NCBI GenBank assembly: GCA_002245135.1
Contig: NGBS01000914.1
Span: forward strand, 1-48,836
Direction: 5' to 3'
DNA: 48,836 bases
Origin: Proteromonas lacertae
Taxonomy: Eukaryota
In this document: in pieces, positions 9,370 through 43,552 of the stretch
Layout: every line of letters begins with the position of its first letter
Numbering within the stretch: the first letter of the stretch is position 1
Made by a program: the position numbers and the translations under genes
The notes under the pieces: model-generated
Database searches by the model: none
The model's input: only the letters and a program-made list of their open reading frames with translations
Told to the model about the DNA's origin: nothing

Positions 9370-12300
9370 TTACACTACATTGCTAAACTCATTTAAAAAC
9401 TCATTTTTCTTTTCTTCTTCTATCCCATCCAGCTCTATTATACCAATTGATGTAAATGTTTCTAAAAATGATTTTAATTCTGATTTATCTATATCTTCTT
9501 TTAATGTTATTGATAATTCTTCTAAATCTTCAAATACTTCTTTGTTTTCTTTCATTAATCTCAATTCTTTTTCATCTAATTCATTTCCTGATAAATTTAT
9601 ATTTGTCAATGGTATATTATCTTTTAATCTTTCTATTAACATCATCAATCCTTTTTCACTCATCACAATTTCTATATACAATACAATACAATACAGAATT
9701 TTAAATACTTGAGATGTTTAATGATGATATAGAATAAATAAATTTATCTAAATATTTATATATTATCTCTATTCCTTCATCTCCAATTTCATTATTATGA
9801 ATTGAGATATATTCAACATTTTCTGTAAAAGAATCTGTTAATTCTTTTAATCCATTACAACTAATCTTGTTATTGGATATATCAAGATATTTATAATCAA
9901 TCTGTTTTATTAATGAAATATGAGAATCATTCACATTTAAATCTATTTCATTATAAACACACATAATATACTCGAAAAATCATAACATTTTTCATAACTT
10001 CTTCTTTTCTTTTTAATACAATAATTCAAATAATATTCACATTCTTCTTTTCTCCATGATTTATTATTCATTTGAATAAATGGATATTCTTCTTTTTCTA
10101 ATGTTTTGGAACAAATTGATTTTAATCCATTCATTCTGATATTATTTCCATTTAAGTTTATTGTGTTGCAATTAGAAATTGAATCTATCTTATCAGCTAA
10201 TAATATCACACTTTCATCATCTATTGAGATATTACTCAAATCATAATCATATATTAACATGATTACATTGTTTATTAATAGCTTAAATCCAGCATTACCA
10301 ATTGGATTATCTATTAAACAAATTAAAAACTACCATAAATATACTTTGAATATTCAATTCATTAATAATATCACTTTCTTTCATATAATTCATCAAATAT
10401 TCTATTCCTTCTGAATCTATATTATTATCACTTATATCCAATCTGATCTTTTGATGAATACTCTTTAAACCATCTAATAAATACTTCAATCCAATTGAAG
10501 ATAATCCCATTTCTATTGAATATTAAAAGATAGTATTGATACTTGAACAATTAATCTCATCAATATAACTTAATAAATGTAAATGTGGAGATAATATTTT
10601 CATTCCTTCATCTCCTATTTCATTTTCATTTAATTCAAGATATTCAAGATTTGGAAATGAAGATAAATTGTTTATCAATATCTCTATACTTTCATATGTT
10701 AGTTTATTATCTATATAATAATAAAAATATCAAATTATACAACGCAAATATAACACTTCTATTTCTTTCAATTCATTTGATCTTAATGAAATGAATCTTT
10801 TGAAAATATCATCATCTATTTCTAAATTAAACAGATATAATTCATTGTATTGGTTTATATATTTGAATAATTCAGGAATGTCTTTATCAATCAGTAATTC
10901 TTTACTAACATCACAATATATATTTCGAAATTTGGAGAATAAGGCTTTTAATCCTATTGAATGAATGTTTTGGTTTTCTCTAATATCTATTTTATTAAGA
11001 TTTGGATATTTATATAATTCTGATGATAATAACATCATACATTCATCATTTAATTTCATTCCTCTAAGATCTAATTCATTGTCTTTGTTGATTAATAAAT
11101 TCAAATATGGAAGTAACAATTTAAATCCTTTCGCACCAATTTCATTAGCTATTTCAAAAAATAACAATATGATTATAAATACATCGAAGATCTATATATT
11201 TCAATTTCATTAATGGAATTGATTTAACAAATGATTCAATGAAATAGGAAGTAAGATTATAACATGATAAATATAATGTTTGTAGATTTGATAATCCAGT
11301 CAAATATGATCCAAATAATGATTGATGAATAATTGGTATTTGAATATGATCTATACAAATAATAATATATAGAAAAATACTAAATAACAGCTTAGTTGGA
11401 TTGATTTTTCTCAATATTCTAAATAAATAATTCAGTCCTTCTTCACAAAAACATATACAATCTGGTTCTATTTTCATCTTTTCTTTATCGAAATAATTGC
11501 TTTCTATCTTAAATATTATCTCATCTAAATTACATTCTCCATATTTACATTTATGATGTATTTGAAATTTCAATCTATCCTCAATTGAATTATCTTCTTT
11601 GTACATTTTCATCATCAATAATATTGACAATATTCTTTCATTTGGTTGAATATTGTAGGATTCTATCAATTTATCTCTAATCACTTCTCTTTTTTCACTT
11701 TCAATATAATATTTTGATGGATATGTTATTGGAAGTCTAACAATTGTATTATCATTATTTAATAATATTTCTTTTCTTTCTTCACATATCATCATATTAT
11801 CACCTTCATCTATCAATATTTCACTCATTTTTATCATTTCTTTCTTCAACTCTTTCAAACTCATTCTATCTTCATTCTTCACTTTCAACATTCTATATAT
11901 CATCTCTTTCATTCTATCATCACATTCTACATCTATATTGTATTTACATCTCACAATATTCTCTCTTGTTTTAAACATATTATTATCTTCTGAAAATGGT
12001 AATTTATTAAACATCATTTCATATAATATACACCCAATTGACCAAATCACACTTCCTTTATCATATTCTAATCCATTCAACTCTTCTGGACTTGTGAAGC
12101 ATATATCATACAATCTCATATCTTCTTCTTTTCTTATTTCATTCAAACATAAATCACATAACTTTAAAATACCATTCTCTTCATATATCACATTACTACT
12201 CTTCAAATTACCTACTACAATCTCATTTTCATTCATTACCATTACATCATCACATATTGAACTTATTATATCACATATTTCATTCACACATAAACAATTT

Positions 12301-12644
12301 TTAGAAACTATCTCTTTCAAGTCTCTACTGTAATATTCTCTACAATATATCATATATTCACCATAATCATTCATATCATATACTCTATATCGATAAATGA
12401 AGGAGGAACAACAAACTAACAACAAACACTTATTCTCTAACAATTTTAATATTTGTTTCTCTTTTATTTCACATACATTAAACACTTTCAACTTTTGAAT
12501 ATCAGTTTCATATTCTACAACTAAATCTAACTCATTAACACTTCTTTCTATTCTCTCTTTCTCCTAATAAAAATAAATTAATTATAATACTTTCATATCA
12601 CATGCTAATTTAGCATATAACACTTTATCTATCAAATGCAACAT
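9370..12644 (-). CDS. Pseudokinase + RNI-like LRR protein (copy L1), multi-exon
   Basis: Kinase fold with degenerate motifs (VGNLKSSN, LKLCDLC, FTSPEE, VIWSIGCILYEM, KLPF), then many LxxLxLxxNxIxxxG repeats joined by ~30-nt GT-AG introns. Start codon approximate. Confidence 0.8.
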
Positions 12645-12784
12645 TTCAAAATATTGAGTCGTTTCATTTATGGAATTTTTTATTTACATACACAGAAATC
12701 ATTCTAACACAATATTTGTTTATTATATTCATATTTATTAACACTTGAAAAACAACTTCAACAAGTAAATTAAAGGAAAATATT

Positions 12785-13380: not shown

Positions 13381-13559
13381 ATGAAATTTATATAGGCTTG
13401 ATCATGGTTTGATAATGTATTTTGAATAATTTGATCAAAACAAATATAGAAAGTATTTAATATTAACAGAAAATATGAAAATATGTACAGTATAGTATGA
13501 TAAACATTTTCATTATTAACAAATAAAAGAATAATAGAGTAAAACAACTAATAATTGAA

Positions 13560-14288
13560 TTATTTAACATTCAAATATTCTTTTGATAGTTCTTTCTTTT
13601 CTTCTTCTTCTATCCCATCCAGCTCTATTATATCAATTGATGTAAATGTTTCTAAAAATGATTTTAATTCTGATTTATCTATATCTTCTTTTAATGTTAT
13701 TGATAAACTATCTAAATCTTCAAATACTTCTTTGTTTTCTTTCATTAATCTCAATTCTCTTTCATCTAATTCATTTCCTGATAAATTTATATTTGTCAAT
13801 GGTATATTATCTTTTAATCTTTCTATTAACATCATCAATCCTTTTTCACTCATTCCAATTTCTATATACAATACAATACAATACAGAATTTTAAATACTT
13901 GAGATGTTTAATGATGATATAGAATAAATAAATTTATCTAAATATTTACATATTATCTCTATTCCTTCATCTCCAATTTCATTATTATGAATTGAGATAT
14001 ATTCAACATTTTCTGTAAAAGAATCTGTTAATTCTTTTAATCCATTACAACTAATCTTGTTATTGGATATATCAAGATATTTATAATCAATCTGTTTTAT
14101 TAATGAAATATGAGAATCATTCACATTTAAATCTATTTCATTATAAACACACATAATATACTCGAAAAATAATAGTATTTATTGTCTTTTCTTTTCTTTT
14201 TAATACAATAATTCAAATAATATTCACATTCTTCTTTTCTCCATGATTTATTATTCATTTCTATAAATGGATATTCTTCTTTTTCTAA
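13560..14288 (-). pseudogene. 5'-truncated LRR copy (L2), last three exons only
   Basis: 13446-14288 is a direct repeat of 9276-10101. It begins abruptly at LEKEEYPF with no start codon. Confidence 0.8.
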
Positions 14289-14497
14289 ATATGGAATAAT
14301 CTTTTTTAAATATGGAAATGATTTTATACATTTTGAGAATGTATTTATTCATCAAATATTGGTTATAGAGACATTTTCATTAGATTATCAATAAACACAT
14401 AAAAAACACATAGTATATGAAAATTAAAATATAAAGTAAGAAGTGAATATAATACTAATTTATTTATAATATATATATATATTACAATATATATGAT

Positions 14498-17400
14498 TTA
14501 ACTATACAAAGCTTCAACACTTCCAGTTCTATCATTTCTCTTATACAAACGACCTTCTGTTGTTCTACAAACAGTATAACCACCATCTAATTTTTGACCT
14601 TCTCTATATATTATTATATCCAGATCTTCAGGAGGATCCCAACTCGTACTTCCTGTTTCAGTGTTAAAGAAGTAATAACAACCTGTATTCTCATCAAATA
14701 AGTATTGATAGATTGCTTCCTAAACAAATATTAAAATCATTAATAATAATATATATATACATGATTAGTTGAATCAGCAGTTGGAGGTCTTAAAGCATCA
14801 TTCCCAGTTACTATTGTCATTTTAGATGGTTTAGGGTTACTACTATTTCTTTCGATTAATAAATCTCGCTCATATATTTGTTTTGTCATATCCATCTTTA
14901 TAGCGATCAAACGATTATCTAATTCACTTTCTAATTTATTGAATCTATTCACAAATGATTTGATCGATGTATCTAAGTAAGATTGTAATGAATGATAATT
15001 CGTTCGAATCTCACTCATATTCGCATGATCTACGAAGTTGTATAAATTATCAAATTCTATTTGCCATTTCAAATTATCCATTGTTGTAGTTAAACTCAAG
15101 CTATCCATTGATTTGTTTATATAATTCATATCTTTCTTATTATTATCTAATTGTTGATTTACCTCCTTCTTTGTATTTGTTACTGTTACTTTCAACTCAT
15201 TAATATCATTTTCACAGTCACTAAGTCTTCGGTTATTATTATCTTCTATACGCTTCATTTCTATTTTCAATTATATAAAATTAATATATATATATATATA
15301 ATACTTTCATCTGTTACTGTCTTATATTGTTCCAACTTCAATTTTACATCATTCTTTGTATCTTCCAATTTATTGTGATAGTCACTATAATAGTGGAATG
15401 TTTCATCCTTCAATTTGTTATAGTTTTCTTCTACTAAAGCTCTTTCCATCGCTTCATTGGCTATTTGTTTACTTTCAATTAATTCATAAATATCATTTAT
15501 CTTCTTTTCTACATAATCTTTCAATTCATTATTTTCACGAATATCATTCAATACTTTCTCTAATCTTTCATTTTGATTATCAATCTTGTTATTAATTATT
15601 TGTCTCTGTTTTGCATTTTCTTCACTAAATTGACTCATTTCATTGTGTATTTTCTCCATCTTTTCTTCATTTCTTTCAATACTGTTCTTGTTGATTTCAG
15701 CTTCGTTATTAATCTCATTTTCAATATTTCGATGTCTTTCATCACATTCATATCTTAATGAATCAATGCTTTGTTGACAATTCTTTATCTTCTTATCTAA
15801 ATCACTCACTCTTCTCAAATTCTTATTTATTACATCTGTCACATGTTTTTCATATAATTCAAAGTTAGTTTGATTGTACAAATCATTAATAACAGCTTGT
15901 GCTACAACTTCATTTCTTAAATTATCTATTGCTTCTAATTTCAAACTTCCATCATTAGCTAAACCACCATTATTATTAGTTGAGCTATAACCACTTAATT
16001 CTAATTGCGGTCTAGTTATATAATCACTTTCTATTGCTTTTATTCTACAATTATGATTGTCTAAATCATTTTGAATTCTTCTTATTAATTTATTAGACAT
16101 TCCATCATTGATATTATTATTATTACTTCTAGCTGAAGCTAAATCACTATTTTTCATCTCTTCAATTTCATCTTTTACATCATTCAATTCTTTATTCAAA
16201 TCACTCAACTCTTTATAGATTGCACTATTTTTACTATTTCCACTATCAATTCCTTCCATTTTCATATTACTAATCTCTTGTAACCTACTAGAAAGACTCA
16301 CTAATTGATTGGTTATTTCATTATCTTTATTATTTATATTCTTCATTTCTGTGACTATATAATTCTCTAATTTTGTTTCAATCTCTAATATTTCTTGCTT
16401 AAAGTCTTCTATATCTTGACTGTGTTTATTTAATCGTATTTCCAAGTTCTTTGCTAAGTTATTTAGCTTTATATCATATCCACCAAATCCTTTATCTATT
16501 GTATCTTGAACATGATTTTCGTATGTTTGAAGTATGTCATTTTGACCTTTAATTGTAGTTAATACATCGGAATATTTATTATCAATCTATTAACAAACAT
16601 TAAAAATAATAATATAATATAATATATATATATATATACTCTTCGAATGGAATCATCTAATAATTTTCTACTTTTCTTTTCATCACTCAATCCACTTTCT
16701 AACAATTTTAATTTCTGTATAACACCACTCCATTTATTAAAATCCATAGCACCACCATTACTACCATCAATTAATGGATTTATATTATTCAAAGGAATTC
16801 CTCCAACACTTTGATTCTGTATTGTAGCATCAATAACTACTTTCTGTTCCATTTGATCATTTACTATACCATTTACTGCTTCTCTTACTTTACTTTCTAA
16901 ATCAATTATATTATTCTTTACACCATTTAAATCTATATTCAATCTATCAATATTATTATTAACCAACGAGAGTTTGTTATTTAAATCATTTGTATTAATG
17001 GAAATATCTTTGACTTTATTTTCAATTTCATTCATTCGTGTTATATAATTTTGATTCATATTCTCAAAACTCATTTTTACATCATACACTGATTTTTCCA
17101 CTAAATTGATTCGACTAATTAATCGTTCTACATCATTGGATCGAGCCATTTCAAAGTGTTCAGTTTTATTTTGAATTCCACTTATTACATCTTTTATATC
17201 ACCATTATATTTCGAATAATTCTTTCGCCACTCTTTTTCATGTTTTAATTCACTCTCTAATTGGTATAATCTGCCTTTTAGCTCATTTATTAAGTTACTA
17301 TTCTCTCTTTGATTTTGATTATATTGATCCAGCTGATTCTTTAACAAAATGAATGATTTGTCATTTTGTTGAGATTGAGGCGGGTAATATTGCGGCGCAG

Positions 17401-17900
17401 GTGGTTGAGCTTGAATTATTTCAAGCTTTGCTGCTGGTAATGGACTGTTTGACTGTGGAATATCGAATTTTCTATAATAAATATAATTTTATATATATAC
17501 TGTGGATTGTAATATTGATTTGGAGGTTTTGGTGGAGGAGGATCATCATAATAAGGTTCTGGTGGTTTTACTATTGGTTTTTCATAATAAGGACTTCTTG
17601 AAGGGTTATTATTTTGAATTGGGGCTATTGGAGGTAGAACACCCACTTTCTGCTGTGGAGAATCTCCATGTAATCTATCATAACGATTCTTTTGCATCAT
17701 CCTTTCTTTCTCTTCAATTTGCCTTTTTAAAGCTAAAGGCTAAAAAATAAAAATCATACATCTACTATATGCTTCTTGTAATTCTCTTCTACGACGTTCA
17801 TTCTCTAAACCCTCTTTACCAAACATCAAAGGTGTTTCTGGAGTATTGCCTATTCATAATATATTATTATATGTTTGGATATACCTCTATATTCTGCCAT
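14498..17900 (-). CDS. Large coiled-coil protein with Pro-rich N-terminus and C-terminal WW/WW-like domains
   Basis: Exons join through short GT-AG introns from MAEYR. Long heptad-rich ORFs. Last exon YLFDENTGCYYFFNTETGSTSWDPP..GYTVCRTTEGRLYKRNDRTG. Confidence 0.75.
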
Positions 17901-18033
17901 ATAAATGTGTAACTAAAAAACGAATAACTGCCAATAAGAAACGAGTATATTTTTTATAAATTTTGAATTATTTTTTTCACACACCAATTTCAATTTCAAA
18001 TTATTTCTGGAAGGTTATTCTATAGAATAAATA

Positions 18034-18771
18034 ATGCCACATATTTATACCCCAGATGATATACTTCAATTGAATGCTCCAACTAAAGGTATTCATCTAT
18101 ATTTATCATTGATTTATAGATTATTTATGTTCTCCTGAAGATAATGTCTATGGAATAGAATTTTTAGAGTTTGAGATATACAACGATGAGACAAAAGAAA
18201 AATATTTCCAAATTGGTTGTCCAGACCAAAGATACGATTTGCCAAGTAGATTTTCACGTTGCGCTGATGATCTTAGAAAAATCTATTATGAGTTTCCATT
18301 AGGTGTATTAGAAGCACCAATAATTGCTACTAGGTATATATTATGTGATTATACTCTTTATAGATTAAAGTTCAAAGTTGGACCACAAGAAGTTCGTGAT
18401 TTTAGAATGATAGAAAGACATTATTTTAGAGATACTCTTTTAAAAAGTTATGATTTCCAATTTGTGTTTTGCATTCCAAATTCAGAGAATGAATGGGCTT
18501 CTTATTACAAAGTACCTCCTCTTAACAAAGATTTGCGTATTTTTATTTCTGTTTTATGAATATAGTTGATCAAATCTGTTTACATCCTAATGAGACACAG
18601 AGTGATAGTTTTTATTTTGTTGGTGATGAATTGATAATGCATACAAAAGCAATTTACACTTATTTTAGACCAAATGAAACAATCAGTCGATCTTTACCTG
18701 CTGAAGTTAAAGAATCAGAAAGAATTACAGCAAATGAAAGTAAGTTAGATGCTAGGCATCCTAGAAAGTAA
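18034..18771 (+). CDS. UNC119: UNC119 (PDE-delta family) lipidated-cargo carrier, 4 exons
   Basis: YLCSPEDNVYGIEFLEF, FRMIERHYFRDTLLKSYDF.F.FCIPNS.N, SDSFYFVGDELIMH.KA.Y.Y. Confidence 0.92.
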
Positions 18772-18838
18772 CTAACAACCGTAATTTATTCTTGTTTTTT
18801 TTAACATATAAATTCTTAAAATTACATAACGTATATAT

Positions 18839-19338
18839 TCATTTTTTATAATACTTTATTATAAACACCGAAGAATTCTGATCTAAACACACAAAAGTAT
18901 CTACTGGTGATTTAATGTCGTTAAATATTAATATTCCTTATTTCTACCTTGTCTTATCATAATAGTATGTTTGCCCATATTATATATAATCTCATATTTT
19001 TCTTCTTTCTTTGATTTTATTTCATTTATTACTTTTTCTCTAGCAAATTCACCGCCAGATCCATATAACACAAATTTATCTTTATTTATAGCAATACTAC
19101 AGGAAGAATCATGATTATAAATGAAATGACCAAAATAGTCTTTAATAGTAGAACAGCCAATGTATAATCCATTTTCATTGTGAGATATAAATATAAAATG
19201 ATGAATTCCATTTTCTAATACTATGCCCAAGTAGCAATGAGGTAAAGCAGCAACAGAACTGGATTTATTTAAATTTGTATTTCCATTATCAGTTAATACA
19301 ATATATATGTGCTTATTATATGAAAATTTTATATCCAT
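18839..19338 (-). CDS. SPRY/B30.2-like small protein; C-terminal strands out of frame
   Basis: LENGIHHF..GLYIGCS..IIYNM..HTIMI, then in another frame IFNDIKSPVDTFVCLDQNSSV. Confidence 0.45.
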
Positions 19339-19421
19339 TTTCTAAAATACTATTACAATTTTGATATATATCAAAAAACGCATATACAATATATTATTAT
19401 AATATTACAACTAAAAATCAA

Positions 19422-21949
19422 TTACACTACATTGCTAAACTCATTTAAAAACTCATTTTTCTTTTCTTCTTCTTCTATCCCATCCAACTTTACTATACCA
19501 ATTGATGTAAATGTTTCTAAAAATGATTTTAATTCTGATTTATCTATATCTTCTTTTAATGTTATTGATAATTTTTCTAAATCTTCAAATACTTCTTTGT
19601 TTTCTTTCATTAATCTCAATTCTCTTTCATCTAATTCATTTCCTGATAAATTTATATTTGTCAATGGTATATTATCTTTTAATCTTTCTATTAACATCAT
19701 CAATCCTTTTTCACTCATCACAATTTCTATATACAATACAATACAGAATTTTAAATACTTGAGATGTTTAATGATGAAAACATGAAGAATTTATCTAAAT
19801 ATTTACATATTATCTCTATTCCTTCATCTCCAATTTCATTATTATGAATTGAGATATATACAACATCTTCTGGAAAAGAATCTGTTAATTCTTTTAATCC
19901 ATTACAACTAATCTTGTTATTGGATAAAACAAGATATTTATAATCAATCTGTTTTATTAATGAAATATGAGAATCATTCACATTTAAATCTATTTCATTA
20001 TAAACACACATAATATACTCGAAAAATCATAACATTTTTCATAACTTCTTCTTTTCTTTTTAATACAATAATTCAAATAATATTCACATTCTTCTTTTCT
20101 CCATGTTTTATTATTCATTTTAATAAATGGATATTCTTCTTTTTCTAATGTTTTGGAACAAATTGATTTTAATCCATTCATTCTGATATTATTTCCACTT
20201 AAGTCTATTGAACAACAATAAGAAATTGAATCTATCTTATCAGCTAATAATATCACACTTTCATCATCTATTGAGATATTGGTTAAATCAATTTTATTTA
20301 AATAATTTTCTAATAACATGTCTAAATTGTTTATTAATAGCTTAAATCCAGCATTACCAATTGGATTATCTATTAAACAAATTAAAAACTACCATAAATA
20401 TACTTTGAATATTCAATTCATTAATAATATCACTTTCTTTCATATAATTCATCAAATATTCTATTCCTTCTGAATCTATATTATTATTACTTATATCAAC
20501 TGAATAGAAATTATCTATATCATCATCTTCTTCTTCATTATTTACTTTTAATTCGTTCATAAAGAATCTAGTCAACTCATCACCTTCATTATCATGAAGA
20601 ATTTTCTTTAAACCATCTAACAAATACTTTAATCCAATTGAAGATAATCCCATTTCTATTACAAATAATATCATAATAATAATAATACTTGAACAATTGA
20701 TTTTATTAATAATACCATCTTTTAATAAATGTAAATATGGAGATAATATTTTCATTCCTTCATCTCCTATCTCATTTCCATTCAATTGAAGTTCTTCAAG
20801 ACTTGTAAATGAAGATAAATTGTTAATCAGTATTTCTATACTTTTGTATGTTAGTTTATTATCTAAATAATATAAAAATATCAAATTATACTGTTCAAAT
20901 CTAATCTCCAGATTATTTCGAATTCATCTGATCTTAATGAAATGAATGATTTGAAAAAATCATCATCAATTTCACAATTACTCACATTTAATACATCATC
21001 ATTCATCAATCCAATTAATTCTTTATCAACTAACATTTCCATACTCTCTTTATTAAAATCAAATTTAATCTTTGAAATTGGAAATTTGGAGGATAAGGCT
21101 TTTAATCCTTTTGAATGAATATTCTTGTTTTCTGCAATACATATACTCTCAAGATTTGGATATTTGTATAACGCTTCAGATAATAATATCATTGATTCAT
21201 CATTTAAATTCATGTTAAAAAGATTTAATTCATTTTTGTCGTTGATCAGTAAATGTAAATATGGAAGTAATGATTTGAATCCTTTCACACCAATTCGATT
21301 AGCTATTTCAAAAGAATAAAAAGAAAATATATATACACTGAAGATCAACATATTTCAATTTCATCAATGGAGTTGATTTAACAAATGATTCAATGAAATG
21401 AGAAGTAAAATTACACCATGACAAATCCAATTTTTCTAAATTTGTTAACTGTGAAAAAAATGATCCAAATAAAGAATAATATTGAATTGGAATATCAATA
21501 TGATTATAGTGCTCTTCGAAAACATCATTATTCTTGGGATCCTTTCCAAATTTTAAGTTTGCTGGATTGATAAGTTTCAATATTCTCATGAAGTAATTCA
21601 ATCCTTCTTCACAATAACAAATACAACTTGAATGAATAATTATAACACCACCATAATATGAGTAAATATCAAATATCATTTTATCTAAGTAACACTCAGC
21701 ATCTTCTTTACAGTGGTGATTTATCTGAAATTTCAGCTTAGTTTGAATGGAATCATCATTTTTGTTTAACTTCATCAGCAGCAACTTTGATAATACTTCT
21801 TCATCAGGTTTAGAGTTGTAGCTTTCTACAAGTTGTTCAATTGCTTCTTCATTCTCTTTCGAATCTACTTCTATTCTTCTTCTTTTCTACATCGAATGAA
21901 TAAAAATATATACTACATAAATACTTGAAGGTTTATTAGAATTACTCAT
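19422..21949 (-). CDS. Kinase-less RNI-like LRR protein (copy L3), 8 exons
   Basis: Starts MSNSNKPSSIYV|KRRRIEV. It is homologous to L1 from the post-kinase domain (LVESYN.KP.E.VLS.LL.MK..LKFQI.H.CK) to the end. Confidence 0.8.
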
Positions 21950-22529
21950 AAAATTGTGTTTTGTTTCAAAAATATAGTCGTTATGATTGAGATATTTTTG
22001 TGTTATTCTGAATAAATACAACTAAATTACTAAAATGCTATTCCTGTGAATTGAAAATAATACAGAAATACTTCCATCAATTAAAATTGTAAAGTATTTT
22101 AAACATTTTGAAAATGTATTTGTTTCAGTTGAAGTTAAATCATTCACTAAAACTATAATCATTATATTTCATGCAATCTAAATTAATTTTTTTACATTAT
22201 TCATTCCTCCATCTTTCATTTAAACTAAGAATTCATAATTAAATATCACATTATATATACAATCACAAAAATGCATTCCAATCCCATTTTCATTTTTATC
22301 ATCAATTCTTTCTTCTATTTTCATATTATTTTATACTCAATAAACCAAATACTAATATCATTATTTTATCAAATTCTAAACAACAGAACAACAACAAGAA
22401 GCAGATAAAACAAAAAATGAAATATCAAGTTTTTTGTATTATTTTTTGATTTTTATACATTTACAGATTCTATTTAAGTAGATTAAAATCACTCTAATAA
22501 ACAAAAGCATATGAATATTTTCATTATTT

Positions 22530-24487
22530 TTATGTATCTATACTTCTTGGTAATAAACTGAATATTTCACATCCACTCATTTTCATAAACAACATATTCT
22601 CTTTATTTATTATTTCTATTCCACTTAAATCATTTAAATCACTTAATAAACATAAATAGTTATTATATAAACTTCGCTCTTTTGGACTTGCTATTCCTTT
22701 TCGAACTTTCTCATGCATTAATTTTAAACATTCATAAAATTTAGTATAGATTTCTTCGAATATATTCAACAAATATTCATTCTCATTTATACACTTTTTC
22801 ATTCTTTCATAATCTTTACTATTCAAATATTCTTTTACAAATCGATTATTTTCTACTATTTCTAACAGATTCTCACTTTTTAAATCGAAATTCAATGACT
22901 AATATATAATATATATATATAATAATATACACTTATAAAACTACACACTTCATTCTTCTCACTTAACCATTTCAACACATTATTCAACAAACTATCATTC
23001 ATTTTGTCTTTCAACATGATTCGTAATATGTTGTTTATTAAACCAATATTCATTTGGATATTTAAATCTAACCATACTTGACAATCATTGTTTATTGTAT
23101 TTTCTCTAGTTAAATCAAATAAATCTATAACAAAATAATAATAATATATAAATATATAAATACTTGAAAAAGAAAATGAACTTTTTATCTTCAATTCAAA
23201 TTCTTTCATTATTTCATTCAATTTTGGAAACTCTTTATATTCCATATATTTATTCATATTGTGATTCATTATTATATAAACTCTCAACATATCATTCTTA
23301 TCACCACTTTCTCCATTATTCTCATTTATTATTATATATTTCACAAATTCATCTATATTCTTCAAACTGTATAATAAATAATTATCACATATGTTTTGTA
23401 AAGCAGCTACACACTTCTGTTGTCTTGTTTTATTTGTTCCTTCTCTATATCCAAAGGATAATTTCATTATCATTATATCTTCTTTTATTTCTTTGGTTAT
23501 ATTTAAATGCTTTACAATATTATTATAATTCTTTTCATTGTTATTTTTTAGTTTCAAATTCATCTCAAATCCACTCTTCAATAATACTCCTATTTCATCT
23601 TTTATATGGATTTTACACATGCTATTATTATTTAAACTTATTCCTTTTAATTTATTATATTTTATTACATTTGGAATTATTTCATGTAAGTAGTTTAATC
23701 CATTTATATATTTATTCCAATATTTGGTTATTTCATTTCCTACTTTAGATATTGCACTTATTAAATACCATTCACTTTCTTTCTTTTTATTTCCTCCTTT
23801 TATATTCATTAACTCAGATTTGGTTGAATTAATTCCTGGAATATTCATTGTAACTATGTTATTAAATAATAATATATACATCTTCTTTTATTATTTGGAT
23901 TATTGTTATTGTTACTGTCTTTTAGAGACTTTATTCTGGATAATTCAGCATTTGAATGAATTGTTTCATTATCTATTTTTATATCTAAATACAATGTTAA
24001 CTTCATTAAATCTCGATTATTGTTATTATAAACACTTGTTATATATTCTGTAAATTCTTTTATATTTATTGGAATTTTCAATTCTATTCATTAGTATTAG
24101 ATTATATAATATACCTTCATTTTCACTACGGCTTATCACTTCATTTTCATTTTCACTCACACTATCTTCTTTTTCTTCCTCTTCATCTAATTTTATTAGT
24201 GTCACACTCTTCTTTATTGCTATTAGAATATCTTCATATGATTCTTCATTTAAAACTCCTTTATTAAACAAATCAAAGTATTTGAATATCTCATTCACTG
24301 TTTTATTTCCTAATTCACTCAATTTATTGTTCTTAAAGTATTCTAACACTTCTAACTCTTCTCTTTCTTCAGTATTTTCATTTATTGCATTCTTTAGTTT
24401 TTCTGCATCAATTCCTATTTCTTTCAATGAGCCTTCAATTCTCTGAAGTTTTTTTAAGGTAGAATTCTTTTGATCAATCAAACTCAT
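22530..24487 (-). CDS. Hypothetical helical protein, multi-exon
   Basis: Overlapping ORFs join through short GT-AG introns. An intact mirror copy lies at 38567-40520. No recognisable motif. Confidence 0.65.
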
Positions 24488-24623
24488 AAAAAAACGAAAA
24501 ACGAAACGAATATATTATTTGAATTATCAAACATTCTCTTCAAACTTATTGAAATATTTCAACCATTATTGCTATTAAAAGCAAAAGAAACAACAATATA
24601 AAAGTAATTACTGATAAAATATC

Positions 24624-25930
24624 TTAAGAATTCATACTACTTAAACAATCTTGAATGAAATCCAATACTAACGTGTATCTTCTATCCTCTTCACTTTCTG
24701 GTTTACAACATTCAACATGATTATACTCCTTTAAATAAACATAATCTCCAACTCCAGGATTTGAATATTCTTTAGGAACAACTACAGCATTCCAATATTT
24801 ATTTATATACATCGATTTTCCTTCACCAATACTTAAACACTTTATTCCAAAATCAATAAAATTATTATTCAAATTAATCAAATACTTACTATTCGGTTTC
24901 AAACCATAAACTAAAGCAGAAGCACTAGCAAAATATAACAAAGTGTTTTTATCTGCTAATAATGGAGAGCCAAAATGAGGTGTGCAATAAAACACTACTC
25001 CTTTTGTTTGTTTTCTAATTATTGAATCTCTATTCATAAATAATTGAATTATATTATATATATATATATACTCATCTTGACATAACAATTCTTTTGCTAA
25101 TATTCCACCTAATGAATGAGTAATAAATATAATCGGATTACTTCCAATTCCACATAAACTCAATTTATATTTCACAGTATTTGCTATTGAAATAACATCT
25201 TCATCTCTTCTTGCTGTTCCCCAAGTAACTAAATGTGTAGGATAACCAATGGATATTATTCGAATGTTGTAATTCTCTAAGGATTTTGGAAGCCACATAC
25301 TTGGCCAGTTTGTTTCATTATTTTCTCCAATTCTCCAAGTGGAGAAAAAAGAACCTCTTAATCCATGAATTAAAATGATATCTACATTCTGTTTATTATT
25401 TTCATTATCTATATCTTTTTCATTACTATTATTTTTTTGTTTTATTGTCTTTTCTTCTTCTATATTATTATTACCATTATTATCATCTTCTTTTAAACTG
25501 TTTTTGATTGATTCAAATTCTACTGTTTTATCTGTTTTATTGATAATACTTTTAATATCATCTTTCATTTCAATTACTTTTATTTTTATTTTTTCACTAG
25601 ATTCTTCTAAATTGATCTTCTTATTGAGTATTGCATCTTTTCTACCATTATTCACATCATTTTCATTATCTTCTTCTTCTTCTTCTTCTTCTTTTTCTCT
25701 ATTTCCTTCTTTCATCAACTGATTAATCTTTGATTTATCTTCTTTTAATTCACTGAGTGGTGAAGGATACAATAAATAAACTCCATCTCCATAATATTCA
25801 TTTTTATTACTGATATTTTGGACAATTCGAATAGTTTGGTAGGAAAGCTTGATATCATCATATTCAAGCCATATCTTGAACTTTTTAACCCATTCTTCTT
25901 CATTTAATATTTTACCAACTTCAAACTATA

Positions 25931-25978
<48 letters not shown>

Positions 25979-32319: not shown

Positions 32320-34067
<1,748 letters not shown>

Positions 34068-34123
34068 TCATTTACAACAAGATAAATAATAATAGAAAAA
34101 AAAACAATAGAAATAAAATATAT

Positions 34124-35618
34124 TTAATCCATTGAAGCTTCTACACCTCTTAATATTAATCCCCAACCAATTAAACGGAAATGATTACCAATTTTTCTAC
34201 TTAAAGCAACTTTTTCACCTACTTCAGCACAAGACTATTAAAATAATAATAAAAAAAATGTAAATATACTGGAATAGCTAATGATAATTTAGCTACATCA
34301 CCTTCCTGACTTTTCTTGCCTTTCTTAGCAGTAGTAATGGATATAACACTCACAGAAGTACTAACAGAACCGATATTTACATTCAAAATTTCCTTAGATT
34401 TCAATCCTTCCACTTTCGCCTGTTTACCGTGTGCTTTTACTCCTAGTAATCTTTTCAATAGATAATAACTAATTTCTATTTCATTATATAGTGGAGGTAA
34501 ACTTCCTTTATGACCTAAGTTTCTTCCTACTAAGTAATCTGATCTAGCCAAGTATGGATCAATATTTGTACCAACACCTATTAAACCACCAGGTATAGCA
34601 ATATCTAATGAATTCTGTTCAGCAAATAAAGATACGATAGTTGTGTATATAGGAGATATTTTATTTTTTCCACTTGAATCTGTCCTTACAATTCCAGGTC
34701 GAATTTCTATTTCATCTCCTACTCGTAATACACCTTTCATTAAACTACCACCAGCTACTCCACCTTTCAAATCATCTATAGAGATACCTGGACGATTTAC
34801 ATCAAAACTACGGATTATTATTAATCGACCAGCACTTGTAAAATCACGAGGAGGAATTGGAATTGATTCAACAATATATTGACATACTACATCAATATTA
34901 TACTTTAGCACGGCGCTTATTGGAATTATTGGAGCACTGGCTGCTTCAGTACCATCTACAAATCGACGAATTGCATTATATTGTTCCATTGCAGCATCTT
35001 TTCGAACTAAATCGATTTTGTTTTGTAAAATTAATATGTGTTTTAATTTCATTATTTCTACAGCAGCTAAATGCTCGGATGTTTGTGGTTGTGGACAAGT
35101 TTCATTTGCTGCTATTAACAGTAAAGCAGCATCCATTACAGCTGCTCCATTCAACATTGTTGCCATATATACATCATGTCCAGGACAATCAACAAAGGAA
35201 ACATGTCTCTGCAAACGCATTGTACCTCCACATCCTTCTCTTGTGCATTTTGGATCTGTATTCATTGAACTGCCAAAAGATTTGTAACAAGAGGGTCTAT
35301 TTATCATATTTATTCATTTATACGGTGGACATTCTGGATTATCACATTTGAATATTTTAGCATTAGCATATCCTAACTTTATAGTGATATTTCTTTCTAA
35401 TTCTTTTCTGAAACGAATAGTCTATTTAAATATTATCGAATTTAATTTGTACTTGAACTCCAGTAATAGCTTTTACTACAGTTGACTTACCGTGAGCAAC
35501 ATGACCAATTGTTCCTGTTACACTAAAAATAAATTCATATACCAATGTTTATTGTTGCCTGCTTTGCCATTATCTCAGGAGTTAATGGACTGAGTTCTTT
35601 AATAGGTATATCTGCCAT
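34124..35618 (-). CDS. EIF2S3: Translation initiation factor eIF2 gamma, paralog A (4 introns)
   Basis: [69 protein letters not shown]. Confidence 0.96.
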
Positions 35619-35747
35619 GAAATGTTATGTTTGGCTTGATATAAAAATGAAGTGTAATTTAATGTAATTTACATAACATAAAAAACGATATAAATTTTAA
35701 AACATTCTAGAATATTGTAGTTTTTTTAACTTATATCTTCTGCCGAG

Positions 35748-36035: not shown

Positions 36036-36096
36036 ATAATACTTTTAAATTAATATATAGCTTTTCTTATTTTTTAAATTTCATTCGATTTTATTG

Positions 36097-36884: not shown

Positions 36885-36971
36885 TATAAGTTATTAAAAA
36901 ACAATTTAAAATTCAAAATAATTTGATTCTCTTTAAAAGGCTTGAGTTTTTTTAGATTTTATAATTGATTT

Positions 36972-38410
36972 ATGTCATCGATGCATGATTTAAGTGAACT
37001 AAATCCACTTTCACCAGATATTATGGCTAAACAAGCAACTATTAATATTGGTATAATAGAAATAGATTTCATTTATAGGAACAATCGGCCATGTATCTCA
37101 CGGTAAGTCAACTGTAGTAAAAGCTATTACTGGAGTTCAAGTACAAATTAAATTCGATAATATTTAAATAGACTATTCGTTTCAGAAAAGAATTAGAAAG
37201 AAATATCACTATAAAGTTAGGATATGCTAATGCTAAAATATTCAAATGTGATAATCCAGAATGTCCACCGTATAAATGAATAAATATGATAAATAGACCC
37301 TCTTGTTACAAATCTTTTGGCAGTTCAATGAATACAGATCCAAAATGCACAAGAGAAGGATGTGGAGGTACAATGCGTTTGCAGAGACATGTTTCCTTTG
37401 TTGATTGTCCCGGACACGAGATATATATGGCAACAATGTTGAATGGAGCAGCTGTAATGGATGCTGCTTTACTGTTAATAGCAGCAAATGAAACTTGTCC
37501 ACAACCACAAACATCCGAGCATTTAGCTGCTGTAGAAATAATGAAATTAAAACACATATTAATTTTACAAAACAAAATCGATTTAGTTCGAAAAGATGCT
37601 GCAATGGAACAATATAATGCAATTCGTCGATTTGTAGATGGTACTGAAGCAGCCAGTGCTCCAATAATTCCAATAAGCGCCGTGCTAAAGTATAATATTG
37701 ATGTAGTATGTCAATATATTGTTGAATCAATTCCAATTCCTCCTCGTGATTTTACAAGTGCTGGTCGATTAATAATAATCCGTAGTTTTGATGTAAATCG
37801 TCCAGGTATCTCTATAGATGATTTGAAAGGTGGAGTAGCTGGTGGTAGTTTAATGAAAGGTGTATTACGAGTAGGAGATGAAATAGAAATTCGACCTGGA
37901 AGAGTTGAAATTAATAACAAAGGAGGATTTACCATTATTCCAATTTATACAAAAATAATATCATTATTTGCTGAACAGAATTCATTAGATATTGCTATAC
38001 CTGGTGGTTTAATAGGTGTTGGTACAAATATTGATCCAAGTCTGTCAATTAATGATAGATTGGTTGGGAAAAACTTAGGAATAGTTGGAACATTGCCAAA
38101 AATATATACTGAAATAGAAATCAGTTATTATTTGCTGAGGAGAGTGTTAGGTGTGAAAGATAGTGAAAATAATTCAAAAAAGAACAAAGTTCAAGGTTTC
38201 AAAAATAGAGAATTTCTAACATTGAATATTGGTTGTGTAACTAGTACTGCTACAATTATAACCTTTGATAAATCAAAAGTTAGAATAAAACTACAAAAAC
38301 CTGTGTGCGCTGAAATTGGTGAAAAAGTAGCTATTAATCGTTATTTAAACAAGCATTGGAGATTAATTGGTTGGGGTTTGTTATTACGAGGTAATGAAGT
38401 GGTTATTTAG
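36972..38410 (+). CDS. EIF2S3: Translation initiation factor eIF2 gamma, paralog B (3 introns)
   Basis: Same family motifs as paralog A but with GHVSHGKS and DCPGHEI. It ends [13 protein letters not shown]. Confidence 0.96.
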
Positions 38411-38566
38411 TTAATTAAGGATAATAATTTAATTGTATTAATTGTAACAATGTTATATTGTTGTTTCTTTTGCTTTTAATAGCAATAATGGTTGAAATAT
38501 TTCAATAAGTTTGAAGAGAATGTTTGATAATTCAAATAATATATTCGTTTCGTTTTTCGTTTTTTT

Positions 38567-40520
38567 ATGAGTTTGACTGATCAAAAGAATTCTACCTTAA
38601 AAAAACTTCAGAGAATTGAAGGCTCATTGAAAGAAATAGGAATTGATGCAGAAAAACTAAAGAATGCAATAAATGAAAATACTGAAGAAAGAGAAGAGTT
38701 AGAAGTGTTAGAATACTTTAAGAACAATAAATTGAGTGAATTAGGAAATAAAACAGTGAATGAGATATTCAAATACTTTGATTTGTTTAATAAAGGAGTT
38801 TTAAATGAAGAATCATATGAAGATATTCTAATAGCAATAAAGAAGAGTGTGACACTAATAAAATTAGATGAAGAGGAAGAAAAAGAAGATAGTGTGAGTG
38901 AAAATGAAAATGAAGTGATAAGCCGTAGTGAAAATGAAGGTATATTATATAATCTAATACTAATGAATAGAATTGAAATTTCCAATAAATATAAAAGAAT
39001 TTACAGAATATATAACAAGTGTTTATAATAACAATAATCGAGATTTAATGAAGTTAACATTGTATTTAGATATAAAAATAGATAATGAAACAATTCATTC
39101 AAATGCTGAATCATCCAGAATAAAGTCTCTAAAAGACAGTAACAATAACAATAATCCAAATAATAAAAGAAGATGTATATATTATTATTTAATAACATAG
39201 TTACAATGAATATTCCAGGAATTAATTCAACCAAATCTGAGTTAATGAATATAAAAGGAGGAAATAAAAAGAAAGAAAGTGAATGGTATTTAATAAGTGC
39301 AATATCTAAAGTAGGAAATGAAATAACCAAATATTGGAATAAATATATAAATGGATTAAACTACTTACATGAAATAATTCCAAATGTAATAAAATATAAT
39401 AAATTAAAAGGAATAAGTTTAAATAATAATAACATGTGTAAAATCCATATAAAAGATGAAATAGGAGTATTATTGAAGAGTGGATTTGAGATGAATTTGA
39501 AACTAAAAAATAACAATGAAAAGAATTATAACAATATTGTAAAGCATTTAAATATAACCAAAGAAATAAAAGAAGATATAATGATAATGAAATTATCCTT
39601 TGGATATAGAGAAGGAACAAATAAAACAAGACAACAGAAGTGTGTAGCTGCTTTACAAAACATATGTGATAATTATTTATTATACAGTTTGAAGAATATA
39701 GATGAATTTGTGAAATATATAATAATAAATGAGAATAATGGAGAAAGTGGTGATAAGAATGATATGTTGAGAGTTTATATAATAATGAATCATAATATGA
39801 ATGAATATATGGAATATAAAGAGTTTCCAAAATTGAATGAAATAATGAAAGAATTTGAATTGAAGATAAAAAGTTCATTTTCTTTTTCAAGTATTTATAT
39901 ATTTATATATTATTATTATTTTGTTATAGATTTATTTGATTTAACTAGAGAAAATACAATAAACAATGATTGTCAAGTATGGTTAGATTTAAATATCCAA
40001 ATGAATATTGGTTTAATAAACAACATATTACGAATCATGTTGAAAGACAAAATGAATGATAGTTTGTTGAATAATGTGTTGAAATGGTTAAGTGAGAAGA
40101 ATGAAGTGTGTAGTTTTATAAGTGTATATTATTATATATATTATATATTAGTCATTGAATTTCGATTTAAAAAGTGAGAATCTGTTAGAAATAGTAGAAA
40201 ATAATCGATTTGTAAAAGAATATTTGAATAGTAAAGATTATGAAAGAATGAAAAAGTGTATAAATGAGAATGAATATTTGTTGAATATATTCGAAGAAAT
40301 CTATACTAAATTTTATGAATGTTTAAAATTAATGCATGAGAAAGTTCGAAAAGGAATAGCAAGTCCAAAAGAGCGAAGTTTATATAATAACTATTTATGT
40401 TTATTAAGTGATTTAAATGATTTAAGTGGAATAGAAATAATAAATAAAGAGAATATGTTGTTTATGAAAATGAGTGGATGTGAAATATTCAGTTTATTAC
40501 CAAGAAGTATAGATACATAA
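38567..40520 (+). CDS. Hypothetical helical protein, duplicate of 22530-24487
   Basis: Near-identical mirror copy with only a few substitutions. Confidence 0.65.
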
Positions 40521-41036
40521 AAATAATGAAAATATTCATATGCTTTTGTTTATTAGAGTGATTTTAATCTACTTAAATAGAATCTGTAAATGTATAAAAA
40601 TCAAAAAATAATACAAAAAACTTGATATTTCATTTTTTGTTTTATCTGCTTCTTGTTGTTGTTCTGTTGTTTAGAATTTGATAAAAAAATGACATTAGTA
40701 TTTGGTTTATTGAGTATAAAATAATATGAAAATAGAAGAAAGAATTGATTATAAAAATGAAATAGAGAAAATGGGATTGGAATGAATAATGTAAAAAAAA
40801 TAATTTAGATTGCATGAAATATAATGATTATAGTTTTAGTGAATGATTTAACTTCAACTGAAACAAATACATTTTCAAAATGTTTAAAATACTTTCCAAT
40901 TTTAATTGATGGAACTATTTCTGTATTATTTTCAATTCACAGGAATAGCATTTTAGTAATTTAGTTGTATTTATTCAGAATAACACAAAAATATCTCAAT
41001 CATAACGACTATATTTTTGAAACAAAACACAATTTT

Positions 41037-43552
41037 ATGAGTAATTCTAATAAACCTTCAAGTATTTATGCAGTATATATTTTTATTAATTCGATGTAGA
41101 AAAGAAGAAGAATAGAAGTAGATTCGAAAGAGAATGAAGAAGCAATTGAACAACTTGTAGAAAGCTACAACTCTAAACCTGATGAAGAAGTATTATCAAA
41201 GTTGCTGATGATGAAGTTAAACAAAAATGATGATTCCATTCAAACTAAGCTGAAATTTCAGATAAATCACCACTGTAAAGAAGATGCTGAGTGTTACTTA
41301 GATAAAATGATATTTGATATTTACTCATATTATGGTGGTGTTATAATTATTCATTCAAGTTGTATTTGTTATTGTGAAGAAGGATTGAATTACTTCATGA
41401 GAATATTGAAACTTATTAATCCAGCAAACTTAAAATTTGGAAATGATCCCAAGAATAATGATGTTTTCGAAGAGCACTATAATCATATTGATATTCCAAT
41501 TCAATATTATTCTTTATTTGGATCATTTTTTTCACAGTTAACAAATTTAGAAAAATTGGATTTGTCATGGTGTAATTTTACTTCTCATTTCATTGAATCA
41601 TTTGTTAAATCAATTCCATTGATGAAATTGAAATATGTTGATCTTCAGTGTATATATTTACTTTTTATTCTTTTGAAATAGCTAATCGAATTGGTGTGAA
41701 AGGATTCAAATCATTACTTCCCTATTTACATTTACTGATCAACGACAAAAATGAATTAAATCTTTTTAACATGAATTTAAATGATGAATCAATGATATTA
41801 TTATCTGAAGAGTTATACAAATATCCAAATCCTGAGAGTATATGTATTGCAGAAAACAAGAATATTCATTCAAAAGGATTAAAAGCCTTATCCTCCAAAT
41901 TTCCAATTTCAAAGATTAAATTTGATTTTAATAAAGAGAGTATGGAAATGTTAGTTGATAAAGAATTAATTGGATTGATGAATGATGATGTATTAAATGT
42001 GAGTAATTGTGAAATTGATGATGATTTTTTCAAATCATTCATTTCATTAAGATCAGATGAATTCGAAATAATCTGGAGGTTAGATTTGAACAGTATAATT
42101 TGATATTTTTATATTATTTAGATAATAAACTAACATACAAAAGTATAGAAATACTGATTAACAATTTATCTTCATTTACAAGTCTTGAAGAACTTCAATT
42201 GAATGGAAATGAGATAGGAGATGAAGGAATGAAAATATTATCTCCACATTTACATTTATTAAAAGATGGTATTATTAATAAAATCAATTGTTCAAGTATT
42301 ATTATTATTATGATATTATTTGTAATAGAAATGGGATTATCTTCAATTGGATTAAAGTATTTGTTAGATGGTTTAAAGAAAATTCCTCATGATAATGAAG
42401 GTGATGAGTTGACTAGATTCTTTATGAACGAATTAAAAGTAAATAATGAAGAAGAAGATGATGAGATAGATAATTTCTATTCAGTTGATATAAGTAATAA
42501 CAATATAGATTCAGAAGGAATAGAATATTTGATGAATTATGTGAAAGAAAATGATAATATTAATAGATTGAATATTCAAAGTATATTTATGGTAATTTTT
42601 AATTTGTTTAATAGATAATCCAATTGGTAATGCTGGATTTAAGCTATTAATAAACAATTTGAATGTTGTCAATAAGTGGGATAGAATGAATTTGAGTAAT
42701 ATCTCAATAGATGATGAAAGTGTGATATTATTAGCTGATAAGATAGATTCAATTTCTAATTGCAACACAATAAACTTAAATGGAAATAATATCAGAATGA
42801 ATGGATTAAAATCAATTTGTTCCAAAACATTAGAAAAAGAAGAATATCCATTTATAGAAATGAAATGTTCATCATGGAGAAAAGAAGAATGTGAATATTA
42901 TTTGAATTATTGTATTAAAAAGAAAAGAGAAGACAATAAATACTATTATTTTTCGAGTATATTATGTGTGTTTATAATGAAATAGATTTAAATGTGAATG
43001 ATTCTCATATTTCATTAATAAAACAGATTGATTATGAAGAACTTGTTTTATCCAATAACAAGATTAGTTGTAATGGATTGAAAGAATTAACAGATTCTTT
43101 TCCAGAAAATGTTAAATATATTTCAATTCATAATAATGAAATTGGAGATGAAGGAATAGAGATAATATGTAAATATTTAGATAAATTCTTCATGTTTTCA
43201 TCATTAAACATCTCAAGTATTTAAAATTCTGTATTGTATTGTATATAGAAATTGTGATGAGTGAAAAAGGATTGATGATGTTAATAGAAAGATTAAAAGA
43301 TAATATACCATTGACAAATATAAATTTATCAGGAAATGAATTAGATGAAAGAGAATTGAGATTAATGAAAGAAAACAAAGAAGTATTTGAAGATTTAGAT
43401 AGTTTATCAATAACATTAAAAGAAGATATAGATAAATCAGAATTAAAATCATTTTTAGAAACATTTACATCAATTGGTATAGTAAAGTTGGATGGAGTAT
43501 CAGAAGAAGAAAAAAAAAAGAGTTTTTAAATGAGTTTAGCAATGTAGTGTAA
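41037..43552 (+). CDS. Kinase-less RNI-like LRR protein (copy L4)
   Basis: Mirror of L3 with variant patches in the 3' half. A poly-A frameshift at ~43510-43520 may be a sequence error. Confidence 0.8.

Follow-up and report, generated by a model that had tools for sequence, protein, structure and literature searches.

Probable mosaic gene conversion and variation on the predicted strand face in a cluster of leucine-rich repeat genes of Proteromonas lacertae

Background

What keeps neighbouring copies of a leucine-rich repeat (LRR) gene nearly identical along a shared half, introns included, while a series of short patches within that half remains different? The question is posed by a 48,836-nt stretch of DNA from the eukaryote Proteromonas lacertae (assembly GCA_002245135.1, contig NGBS01000914.1, positions 1 to 48,836; hereafter the window), in which four to five neighbouring copies of one LRR gene family, termed L1 to L5, were compared. 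An initial annotation had read the cluster as an intracellular recognition repertoire whose variation is confined to the β-strand face and shuffled among paralogs. The explanation that we favour, with moderate confidence, is a cluster of ribonuclease inhibitor (RNI)-type LRR paralogs patterned by repeated short-tract gene conversion, the patches probably being kept different as a binding face. The conversion and the placement of the patches are read from the alignments themselves, whereas a role of selection is something that we infer.

The gene copies of the cluster

Three of the copies, namely L1, L3 and L4, are intact genes with introns and encode RNI-type LRR proteins, and the remaining two, L2 and L5, are 5'-truncated. 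L1 (9370..12596, minus strand) is modelled with 991 codons and eight introns of 27-37 nt, and would encode a pseudokinase, a linker and the RNI-type LRRs. L3 (19422..21949, minus strand; 769 codons, seven introns) and its mirror image L4 (41037..43529, plus strand; 758 codons) are without the kinase domain. L2 (13560..14288, minus strand) comprises the last three exons, with the frame and both introns intact, and has its 3' flank in common with L1 down to position 13446. L5 (48653..48836, plus strand), the mirror of L2, runs past the end of the window, and its visible part contains an in-frame stop and non-triplet, frame-breaking gaps. The frame of L4, which had been extended to 43552, actually ends at 43529, as its A10 run (43510-43519) lacks one base relative to that of L3, which shifts the frame and shortens the tail. 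This difference in the A run may be real or a homopolymer error.

The window is AT-rich (G+C 21-32%) and uses the standard code and standard stops, and its long frames are broken only by introns of 27-38 nt with GTAT...TAG ends. Within the family each exon holds 2-4 repeats. The presence of open frames of 758-991 codons in DNA of 25% GC, together with conserved GT..AG introns, supports their status as real genes. Some of the introns are free of stops and in frame, being hidden in a simple reading of open reading frames (ORFs); these were placed by splice consensus and comparison among the copies (20656-20688, minus strand, and 42296-42328, plus strand, 33 nt; 11351-11380, minus strand, 30 nt). 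An origin from a giant virus was considered and rejected because the frames require spliceosomal-type GT..AG introns.

Variation on the predicted strand face of the repeats

The 3' half shared by the copies spans 1.1 kb, along which they are near-identical except for about ten short patches. In L1 it corresponds to a block (9355..10438, minus strand) with 93-95% identity to L3 and L4, as against 74% upstream. The repeats are about 28 residues long and combine an LxxLxLxxN/CxL strand motif with a following helix, as is typical of the LRR_6 class, and the Pfam LRR_6 profile scores 37 bits (cut-off 23.4) on the L3 ORF at 20366-20923. The best matches among solved structures are to ribonuclease inhibitor (E 1.7e-13 and 3.1e-12), with the repeats in register, and NLRP3 is also matched in repeat register (E ~1e-6 to 4e-7). 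The register used below was assigned from the LxxLxLxxN motif, and for repeats 3, 4 and 8 solved LRR chains served as a check.

In L3 coordinates, and all on the minus strand, the patches begin at 20415..20445 (MKESDIINE/VKENDNINR), where L3 agrees with L1 and L4 stands alone. Next is 20279..20327, with indels before and in the strand of repeat 3 and with L1, L3 and L4 all different, followed by 20196..20222 (YCCSIDLS/NCNTINLN), where L1 agrees with L4 while L3, standing alone, has eight substitutions in 23 nt, one of them synonymous, and no donor in the window. Further along are 20104..20124 (IKMNNKT/IQMNNKS/IEMKCSS) and 20026..20051 (RRSYEKCYD/RK-NKYYY), the latter setting L1 and L3 against the similar L2 and L4, with L5 unlike all of them. 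The remaining patches are 19925..19941 (YKYLDI/YKYLVL/YEELVL), 19851..19875 (TENVEY/PEDVVY/PENVKY; register set against ribonuclease inhibitor), 19776..19789 (FIYSI/FFMF; L1 and L2 versus L3 and L4), 19568..19579 (LEEL/LDSL/LEKL; L2 the same as L4) and 19472..19500 (GIIELDGIE/DIIELDGIE/GIVKLDGIE/GIVKLDGVS). The six sets of peptide variants quoted in the initial annotation are all present as written in the protein alignments: CNTINLNGN is carried by L1 and L4 and CCSIDLSGN by L3, YKYLDIS by L1 and L2, YKYLVLS by L3 and YEELVLS by L4, and LDSLSI by L2 and L4, while TENVEYI/PEDVVYI/PENVKYI, LEELSI/LEKLSI, IGIIEL/IDIIEL/IGIVKL and INELNI/INRLNI were likewise found.

Residues 2, 3, 5 and 7 of an LRR strand face the concave, ligand-binding side. 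Counted by position, variable amino-acid columns comprise 23 of the 55 exposed strand positions and 17 of 55 among the five residues that precede each strand, as against 5 of 55 in the core and 10 of 142 at all other positions (Fisher P 8e-10). The counts thus support the view, as had been proposed, that variation is concentrated on the predicted β-strand/adjacent-loop side of the LRRs. A multi-residue patch is carried by 10 of the 11 strands, and patches touch 10 of the 11 β-strand starts. The helical segments and introns are near-invariant, as had been noted: 6 of 145 helix columns are variable versus 49 of 162 outside the helices, and in DNA the substituted columns number 1 of 95 in introns versus 86 of 914 in exons (ungapped; DNA-alignment columns 34-1071; Fisher P 0.003). 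In the 5' half the three introns of L1 and L3 have diverged, agreeing at 28/34, 28/30 and 22/33 positions, so that the intron identity of the 3' half is recent and not due to constraint.

The substitutions between L3 and L4 are strongly clumped, with 35 distances of three nucleotides or less between neighbours versus 10.6 +/- 2.7 for random placement (reached in 0 of 10000 trials). These two genes lie on opposite arms of an inverted duplication. Arm A (14095..24601) holds the end of L2, a coiled-coil gene, an UNC119-like gene, L3 and the genes upstream of it, and arm B (38453..48836) reaches the end of the window, so that the arms may extend further. Across 10368 aligned columns the arms differ by 145 substitutions, and outside the LRR copies by 73 in 9098 (0.8%). 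The 3' half of L3 (19422..20497, minus strand) has 64 substitutions relative to L4, where the rate in the flanks would predict 8.6 (Poisson P 1e-33), and the 194-nt overlap of L2 and L5 has 8 versus 1.6 expected (P 2e-4); the 5' half of L3 is flank-like, with 14 in 1452 nt. The UNC119/PDE-delta-like gene (18113..18771, plus strand, on arm A; mirror 44204-44862; GMP_PDE_delta 99.7 bits) has identical translations on both arms, and 18088-18687 is without a single inter-arm substitution. The contrast drawn earlier between the differing L3 and L4 and their identical UNC119 neighbours is therefore real.

Incongruent sharing and gene conversion

Of the 688 columns that can be compared in four copies, 55 are substituted; 13 of these sites support the partition L1L2|L3L4, 12 support L1L3|L2L4 and 1 supports L1L4|L2L3, in agreement with the incongruent sharing claimed at the outset, and at 16 it is L4 alone that differs. 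Along the alignment, blocks of the two main partitions take turns (columns 399-493, 592-742, 954-957 and 1036-1042), with at least four switches over 670 nt. The four-gamete test is failed by 181 of the 325 pairs of informative sites, and a PHI-type permutation test yields P 0.01. One tree does not fit all copies. A GENECONV-like test, in which runs of matching polymorphic sites were compared with permutations, recovered runs between L1 and L3 (columns 472-587, global P 0.004-0.017), L1 and L4 (237-323, P 0.011), L3 and L4 (715-905) and L1 and L2 (582-668), the last two at P 0.038 each; a run between L2 and L4 (473-493) has a pairwise P of 0.0098 and a global P of 0.35. Followed along its length, L3 switches between resembling L1, resembling L4 and being private, in 34 runs over 87 sites with the main ones of 95-180 nt. 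L2 shares three patches with L4.

Given that the sharing is incongruent and that no one tree accommodates it, gene conversion among the paralogs is well supported by the alignments. The segmental exchange that had been postulated is likewise upheld by the incompatible partitions, the permutation-tested runs and a backbone younger than its flanks, although the direction of transfer is not readable from four copies. For the 66 differences between L3 and L4, both states occur in other copies at 14, and the remainder are private to L4 (30), to L3 (16) or to both (6); the private counts are far above the 4.2 that the flank rate predicts for each lineage. A search of the window for donors of the private patches, either exact or with up to 15% mismatches, found none, and further family members are therefore predicted to lie outside it.

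An inverted eIF2-gamma pair (34219-35313, minus strand, and 37280-38410, plus strand) served as a control. It is near-identical at 37127-37906 (~780 nt), has 28 substitutions at 37907-37966 and none at 37967-38026, and then diverges by ~35-40%. Since this housekeeping pair is mosaic too, a block-wise mosaic is nothing peculiar to the LRR duplicates but general in this DNA. In each of two smaller palindromes there are 10 substitutions, either scattered or terminal. The periodic patch pattern of the LRR genes was seen in none of the control pairs (eIF2-gamma, the two palindromes and the coiled-coil gene).

Age of the backbone and the patches

Rates of replacement (dN) and synonymous (dS) substitution were obtained by Nei-Gojobori pairwise counting in 3-4 copies. 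The synonymous divergence of the 3' backbone is 0-0.016. Between L3 and L4 the 5' part has dS 0.013 and dN 0.008, and the 3' backbone (232 codons) dS 0.016 and dN 0, while the patches (71 codons) reach dS 0.47 and dN 0.36, a ratio of 0.76; the patch values are inflated, as the patch limits were drawn after the differences had been seen. Between L1 and L3, dS is 1.0 in the linker and 0.355 in the 5' LRR half (dN 0.208), and the 232 codons of the 3' backbone have no synonymous and two replacement differences. The third-position identity of this pair accordingly rises along the gene from 0.33-0.60 through 0.65-0.85 to 1.0. L1 and L3 are thus old paralogs which nevertheless exchanged sequence after the duplication that gave rise to L3 and L4, because their backbone has fewer synonymous differences than that of L3 and L4.

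A count independent of those limits agrees, in that the eight codon changes between L3 and L4 that are synonymous only tend to be close to replacements: six are within two codons of one, as are 47 of 265 codons (P 6e-4). That synonymous changes ride along in this manner, with dS of ~0.47 resembling that of the old paralogs, shows each patch to be a block as old as those paralogs, whether retained or imported, within a recently homogenised backbone, and not a set of selected point mutations.

Constraint differs among the positions of the old 5' LRR half, where the ratio of replacement to synonymous differences is 42:6 at exposed codons versus 40:29 at other codons (P 9e-4). Core and helix codons have dN of ~0.10-0.12 versus dS 0.355, a further sign that these are real genes, and the exposed codons have dN 0.50 versus dS 0.355-0.39, which is not different from neutrality. 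The share of replacements does not differ from the neutral expectation either in the patches (P 0.40) or at the exposed strand codons of the older half (P 0.84), and in the shared half dN/dS is 0.64-0.84 in all six pairs. The diversifying, positive selection that had been proposed is thus not borne out by these values. Adenine-directed, retroelement-like mutagenesis was rejected by eye, as the private changes of L4 have no A bias; in one patch, of 50% A, six of eight changes are at A, again as judged by eye.

Protein architecture and relatives

The kinase-like domain of L1 (11841..12488, minus strand) matches Pkinase at 77.5 bits (cut-off 31.7) over positions 30-259 of the 263 in the profile. 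When compared with solved kinases its HRD motif reads VGN, its DFG motif reads DLC and its N-lobe lacks the beginning; the catalytic Asp of HRD, the DFG triplet and the glycine-rich loop of active kinases are thus absent, and the domain is predicted to be a pseudokinase. As it is N-terminal to the LRRs, the order of an LRR receptor kinase is not seen either. Pfam scans recovered no NACHT or NB-ARC match in L1, L3 or the upstream ORFs at E 0.01, no Roc or COR domain of the ROCO/LRRK type, and no death-fold or other signalling domain except the predicted dead kinase. Because these defining domains were looked for and are absent, the copies are not nucleotide-binding LRR proteins (NLRs), receptor kinases or ROCO proteins. 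The N-termini are hydrophilic, with no signal peptide or membrane span seen, and the highest 19-residue hydropathy is 1.57 in L1 and 1.19 in L3 and L4, which makes a cytosolic or nuclear location of the proteins likely. An AlphaFold2 model of the exon ORF at 19990-20388 from a three-row alignment reached a mean predicted local distance difference test score of 40 and was not used.

A HMMER scan with the ORF at 21308-21886 recovered 18 proteins at E 0.001 or better, of which eight cover the linker domain (31-54% identity) and ten only the LRR end, one of the latter being a NACHT-LRR protein. The eight linker relatives are all exon-sized fragments, and represent eight clusters of 1-15 members with less than 50% mutual identity in public data. 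One relative (P0129) has the architecture of L1, namely kinase, linker and first LRR, with 31% identity over 430 residues, Asn in place of the catalytic Asp as in L1, and DLY at DFG; a second (P0122) has 52% identity to L1 across 220 residues. These two matches indicate that the pseudokinase-LRR design is conserved in a wider group. Given the Asn retained in the former, the pseudokinase is old, and presumably acts as a scaffold. For the ORF at 21308-21886, the similarity to LRR_6 clusters is 0.91-0.94 but the shared counts are low, which is a lead only. Word-indexed protein searches, restricted to the "longer" lengths, found nothing with the ORFs at 19990-20388 and 21308-21886, the relatives found later being exon-sized. 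Scans of metagenomes (protein; a 27-nt exact pattern) were likewise negative, and no viral contig was matched.

What keeps the patches different

In the scenario that we favour, ectopic conversion between the copies would erase isolated differences in tracts of ~20-200 nt, with a bias to the 3' end and a higher frequency among the three copies on one arm. About ten strand-face patches would resist this process, being occasionally swapped as units, as selection for distinct binding surfaces would oppose conversion across them (the "peak of divergence" model). The proteins may be cytosolic scaffolds or sensors whose concave faces bind different partners. For at least one patch, the L3 variant at 20196-20222, the source would be a family member outside the window. 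The force that keeps the binding faces different is probably selection; the patches are read as selected because published conversion logic, as set out in passages of PMC3924837, ties peaks of divergence between converting duplicates to residues that selection keeps different.

Several observations weigh against this scenario. There is no excess of replacements, in the patches or elsewhere, and since neutrality is not rejected, relaxed constraint at exposed residues would explain the placement of the patches as well as selection does. The eIF2-gamma pair indicates that mosaicism needs no special function. The avoidance of helices is modest, in that 6 of 306 circular shifts which keep the clustering avoid them equally well, and the share of variable positions in strand and pre-strand residues is 40/55 in the 3' half versus 47/79 in the unconverted 5' half (P 0.14). 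Register and patch limits alike are the analyst's own assignments, with repeats 3 and 5 ambiguous by 2-5 residues. Finally, the phase between patches is taken from assembled sequence, in 4-5 copies, and could be a product of assembly or polishing.

The alternative that survives best is neutral concerted evolution, which we consider unlikely but a serious contender. Conversion would homogenise the copies, heteroduplex formation or mismatch repair would stall at dense mismatches, and the strand face would simply be the least constrained part, with no selection for diversity. This fits a dN/dS that is near 1 at the exposed codons of the old half and ~0.8 in the patches, as well as the nucleotide divergence of the old half, which in strand windows is about double that in helices. 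The same block mosaic in the eIF2-gamma pair and the small multi-nucleotide clusters in the neighbouring coiled-coil gene (17568-17574) point the same way. However, the patches move between copies as units (L1 and L4 agree at 20196-20222, and L2 and L4 at two patches), and conversion can therefore cross them. Moreover, an expected backbone divergence of ~14% has been erased, down to two differences in 232 codons and introns, while all ten patches survive in at least one pair.

A bolder form of selection plus conversion, and one that we regard as improbable, is the intracellular recognition repertoire originally envisaged, diversified by short-tract conversion with the truncated L2 and L5 as donor cassettes, in the manner of an immune cluster. 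Its key support, a dN/dS above 1 and many variants, is missing. It would account for the cassette-like patches on the predicted binding face, and for L2, which despite its 5' truncation has an open frame, intact introns and patches in common with L4. The private variants for which the window contains no donor point to more family members, the linker relatives fall into eight clusters below 50% identity, and theory excerpted from PMC3924837 describes non-functional copies preserved as conversion templates. Yet no NTPase, death-fold or signalling domain accompanies the repeats bar the predicted dead kinase, just 2-3 variants occur per patch among 4-5 copies, and dN/dS is not above 1. As to the donors, L5, with its stop and frame-breaking gaps, matches no copy at the one patch that it covers fully. 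Nothing ties the LRR genes to defence.

An artefact, whereby assembly, multi-mapping polishing or the joining of two haplotypes as a palindrome produced the phases of the mosaic or even the whole inverted duplication, seems very improbable. The four inverted duplications of the window, the many small inter-arm gaps and the A run that shifts the frame of L4 would be in keeping with it. However, several patches occur in at least three distinct variants, which takes at least three real templates, and private multi-base variants are not producible by majority polishing, even if phases could be scrambled. In addition, the 0.8% difference between the arms is distributed over 10 kb, and the centre between them is unique. 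Equally hard to credit is a cassette system of cytosolic LRR sensors in which full genes, with or without the pseudokinase scaffold, would take up short binding-face cassettes out of a pool spread across the genome, truncated and otherwise useless copies included; the corollary that each strain or clone would have its own set of concave faces, an LRR-based recognition repertoire arisen independently of plant NLRs and of the variable lymphocyte receptors (VLRs) of lampreys, is of similarly low probability.

Relation to known systems

The pattern is one already known from other LRR gene clusters. Plant resistance clusters such as Cf-4/9, RPP8 and other NLRs share with it clustered LRR paralogs, exchange among them and variation at the x positions of xxLxLxx (PMC6771003 and, for Cf-4/9, passages of PMC3924837). 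Unlike the plant clusters, the present copies have no NB-ARC/NACHT, TIR or coiled-coil (CC) domain, signal peptide or membrane span in a Pfam scan and hydropathy profile, and their repeats are RNI-type of 28 residues as opposed to the plant-specific ones of 24. The usual hallmark of the plant clusters, a dN/dS above 1, was not found here among 4-5 copies. The red/green opsin genes and the model of Teshima and Innan, as excerpted in PMC3924837, resemble the cluster in that conversion keeps backbone and introns alike while divergence is limited to short stretches, in the opsins around functionally different residues; unlike the opsin peaks, the ~10 peaks here are spaced like the units of a structural repeat, and the copies carry reshuffled combinations of their variants.

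LRR expansions in Tetrahymena, a unicellular eukaryote, form large and young families, and are comparable in their clustering, in ectopic recombination among in-paralogs and in combinations of LRRs with kinases, according to passages of PMC6564038. The same passages describe 90-bp exons, phase-2 introns and spread with a retrotransposon, which differ from the exons of 2-4 repeats, 27-38-nt introns and standard code observed here. Homology to the Tetrahymena LRR genes was not detected in the protein searches at "longer" lengths. The likeness to ribonuclease inhibitor and NLRP-type repeats concerns the repeat class alone and implies no orthology. In lamprey VLR cassettes, short donor tracts replace binding-site segments. 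Chicken immunoglobulin pseudogenes do likewise and include partial copies beside full genes, in the account excerpted from PMC3924837. Immunoglobulin and VLR diversification is somatic and uses dedicated enzymes, whereas the present case is a static, germline-type sequence with no sign of somatic change.

The cluster thus appears to be a tidy and unusually clean small-scale case of mosaic concerted evolution, backed by solid statistics and lying on a predicted LRR binding face: backbone and introns have been wiped clean, and the strand patches survive and are reshuffled. Rules known from plant resistance genes and opsins, namely conversion and resistant peaks of divergence, recur here, along with a warning that such mosaics need not imply positive selection. 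Should the family turn out both large and polymorphic, it would qualify as a candidate recognition repertoire of a eukaryotic lineage about which little is known, and its pseudokinase-LRR architecture would offer a new scaffold to study.

The inverted duplications and neighbouring genes

Other genes in the vicinity are ordinary, including besides the UNC119/PDE-delta-like and eIF2-gamma genes a syntaxin, RIO2 and a zinc knuckle protein. Rfam had no match anywhere in the window, and tandem repeats at 9000-44000 amount to a TA run and one 33-nt repeat, unrelated to the LRR genes. Just upstream of L3 and L4, in what is likely their promoter region, the arms have 72 gap columns (22087-22286). The proline-rich part of the coiled-coil gene (17289-17588) has 12 inter-arm substitutions in 300 nt, five of them within 7 nt at 17568-17574, and another cluster is present at 16557-16569.

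The long ORF of the minus-strand eIF2-gamma copy matches just the first half of the eIF2_C profile. The closest named matches of eIF2-gamma are from opisthokonts, at 60-64% identity, and the best overall is at 79%. In a tree of 31 rows, built with 30 of the 120 listed matches (named or closest), it is on a very long branch with two rows.

There are four inverted duplications within 49 kb (937-2413/3917-5402, 5631-6445/7474-8288, 14095-24601/38453-48836 and 34434-35597/36996-38159), with 91-99% identity, which may be a habit of the genome or of the assembly. Adjoining the boundary of the large duplication, outside the LRR genes, are two long ORFs on the minus strand (24624-25925 and 25926-26519), which together have a weak PGAP1-like/alpha-beta-hydrolase match (E 6.5e-4, below the cut-off) and a GHSLGG-type motif.

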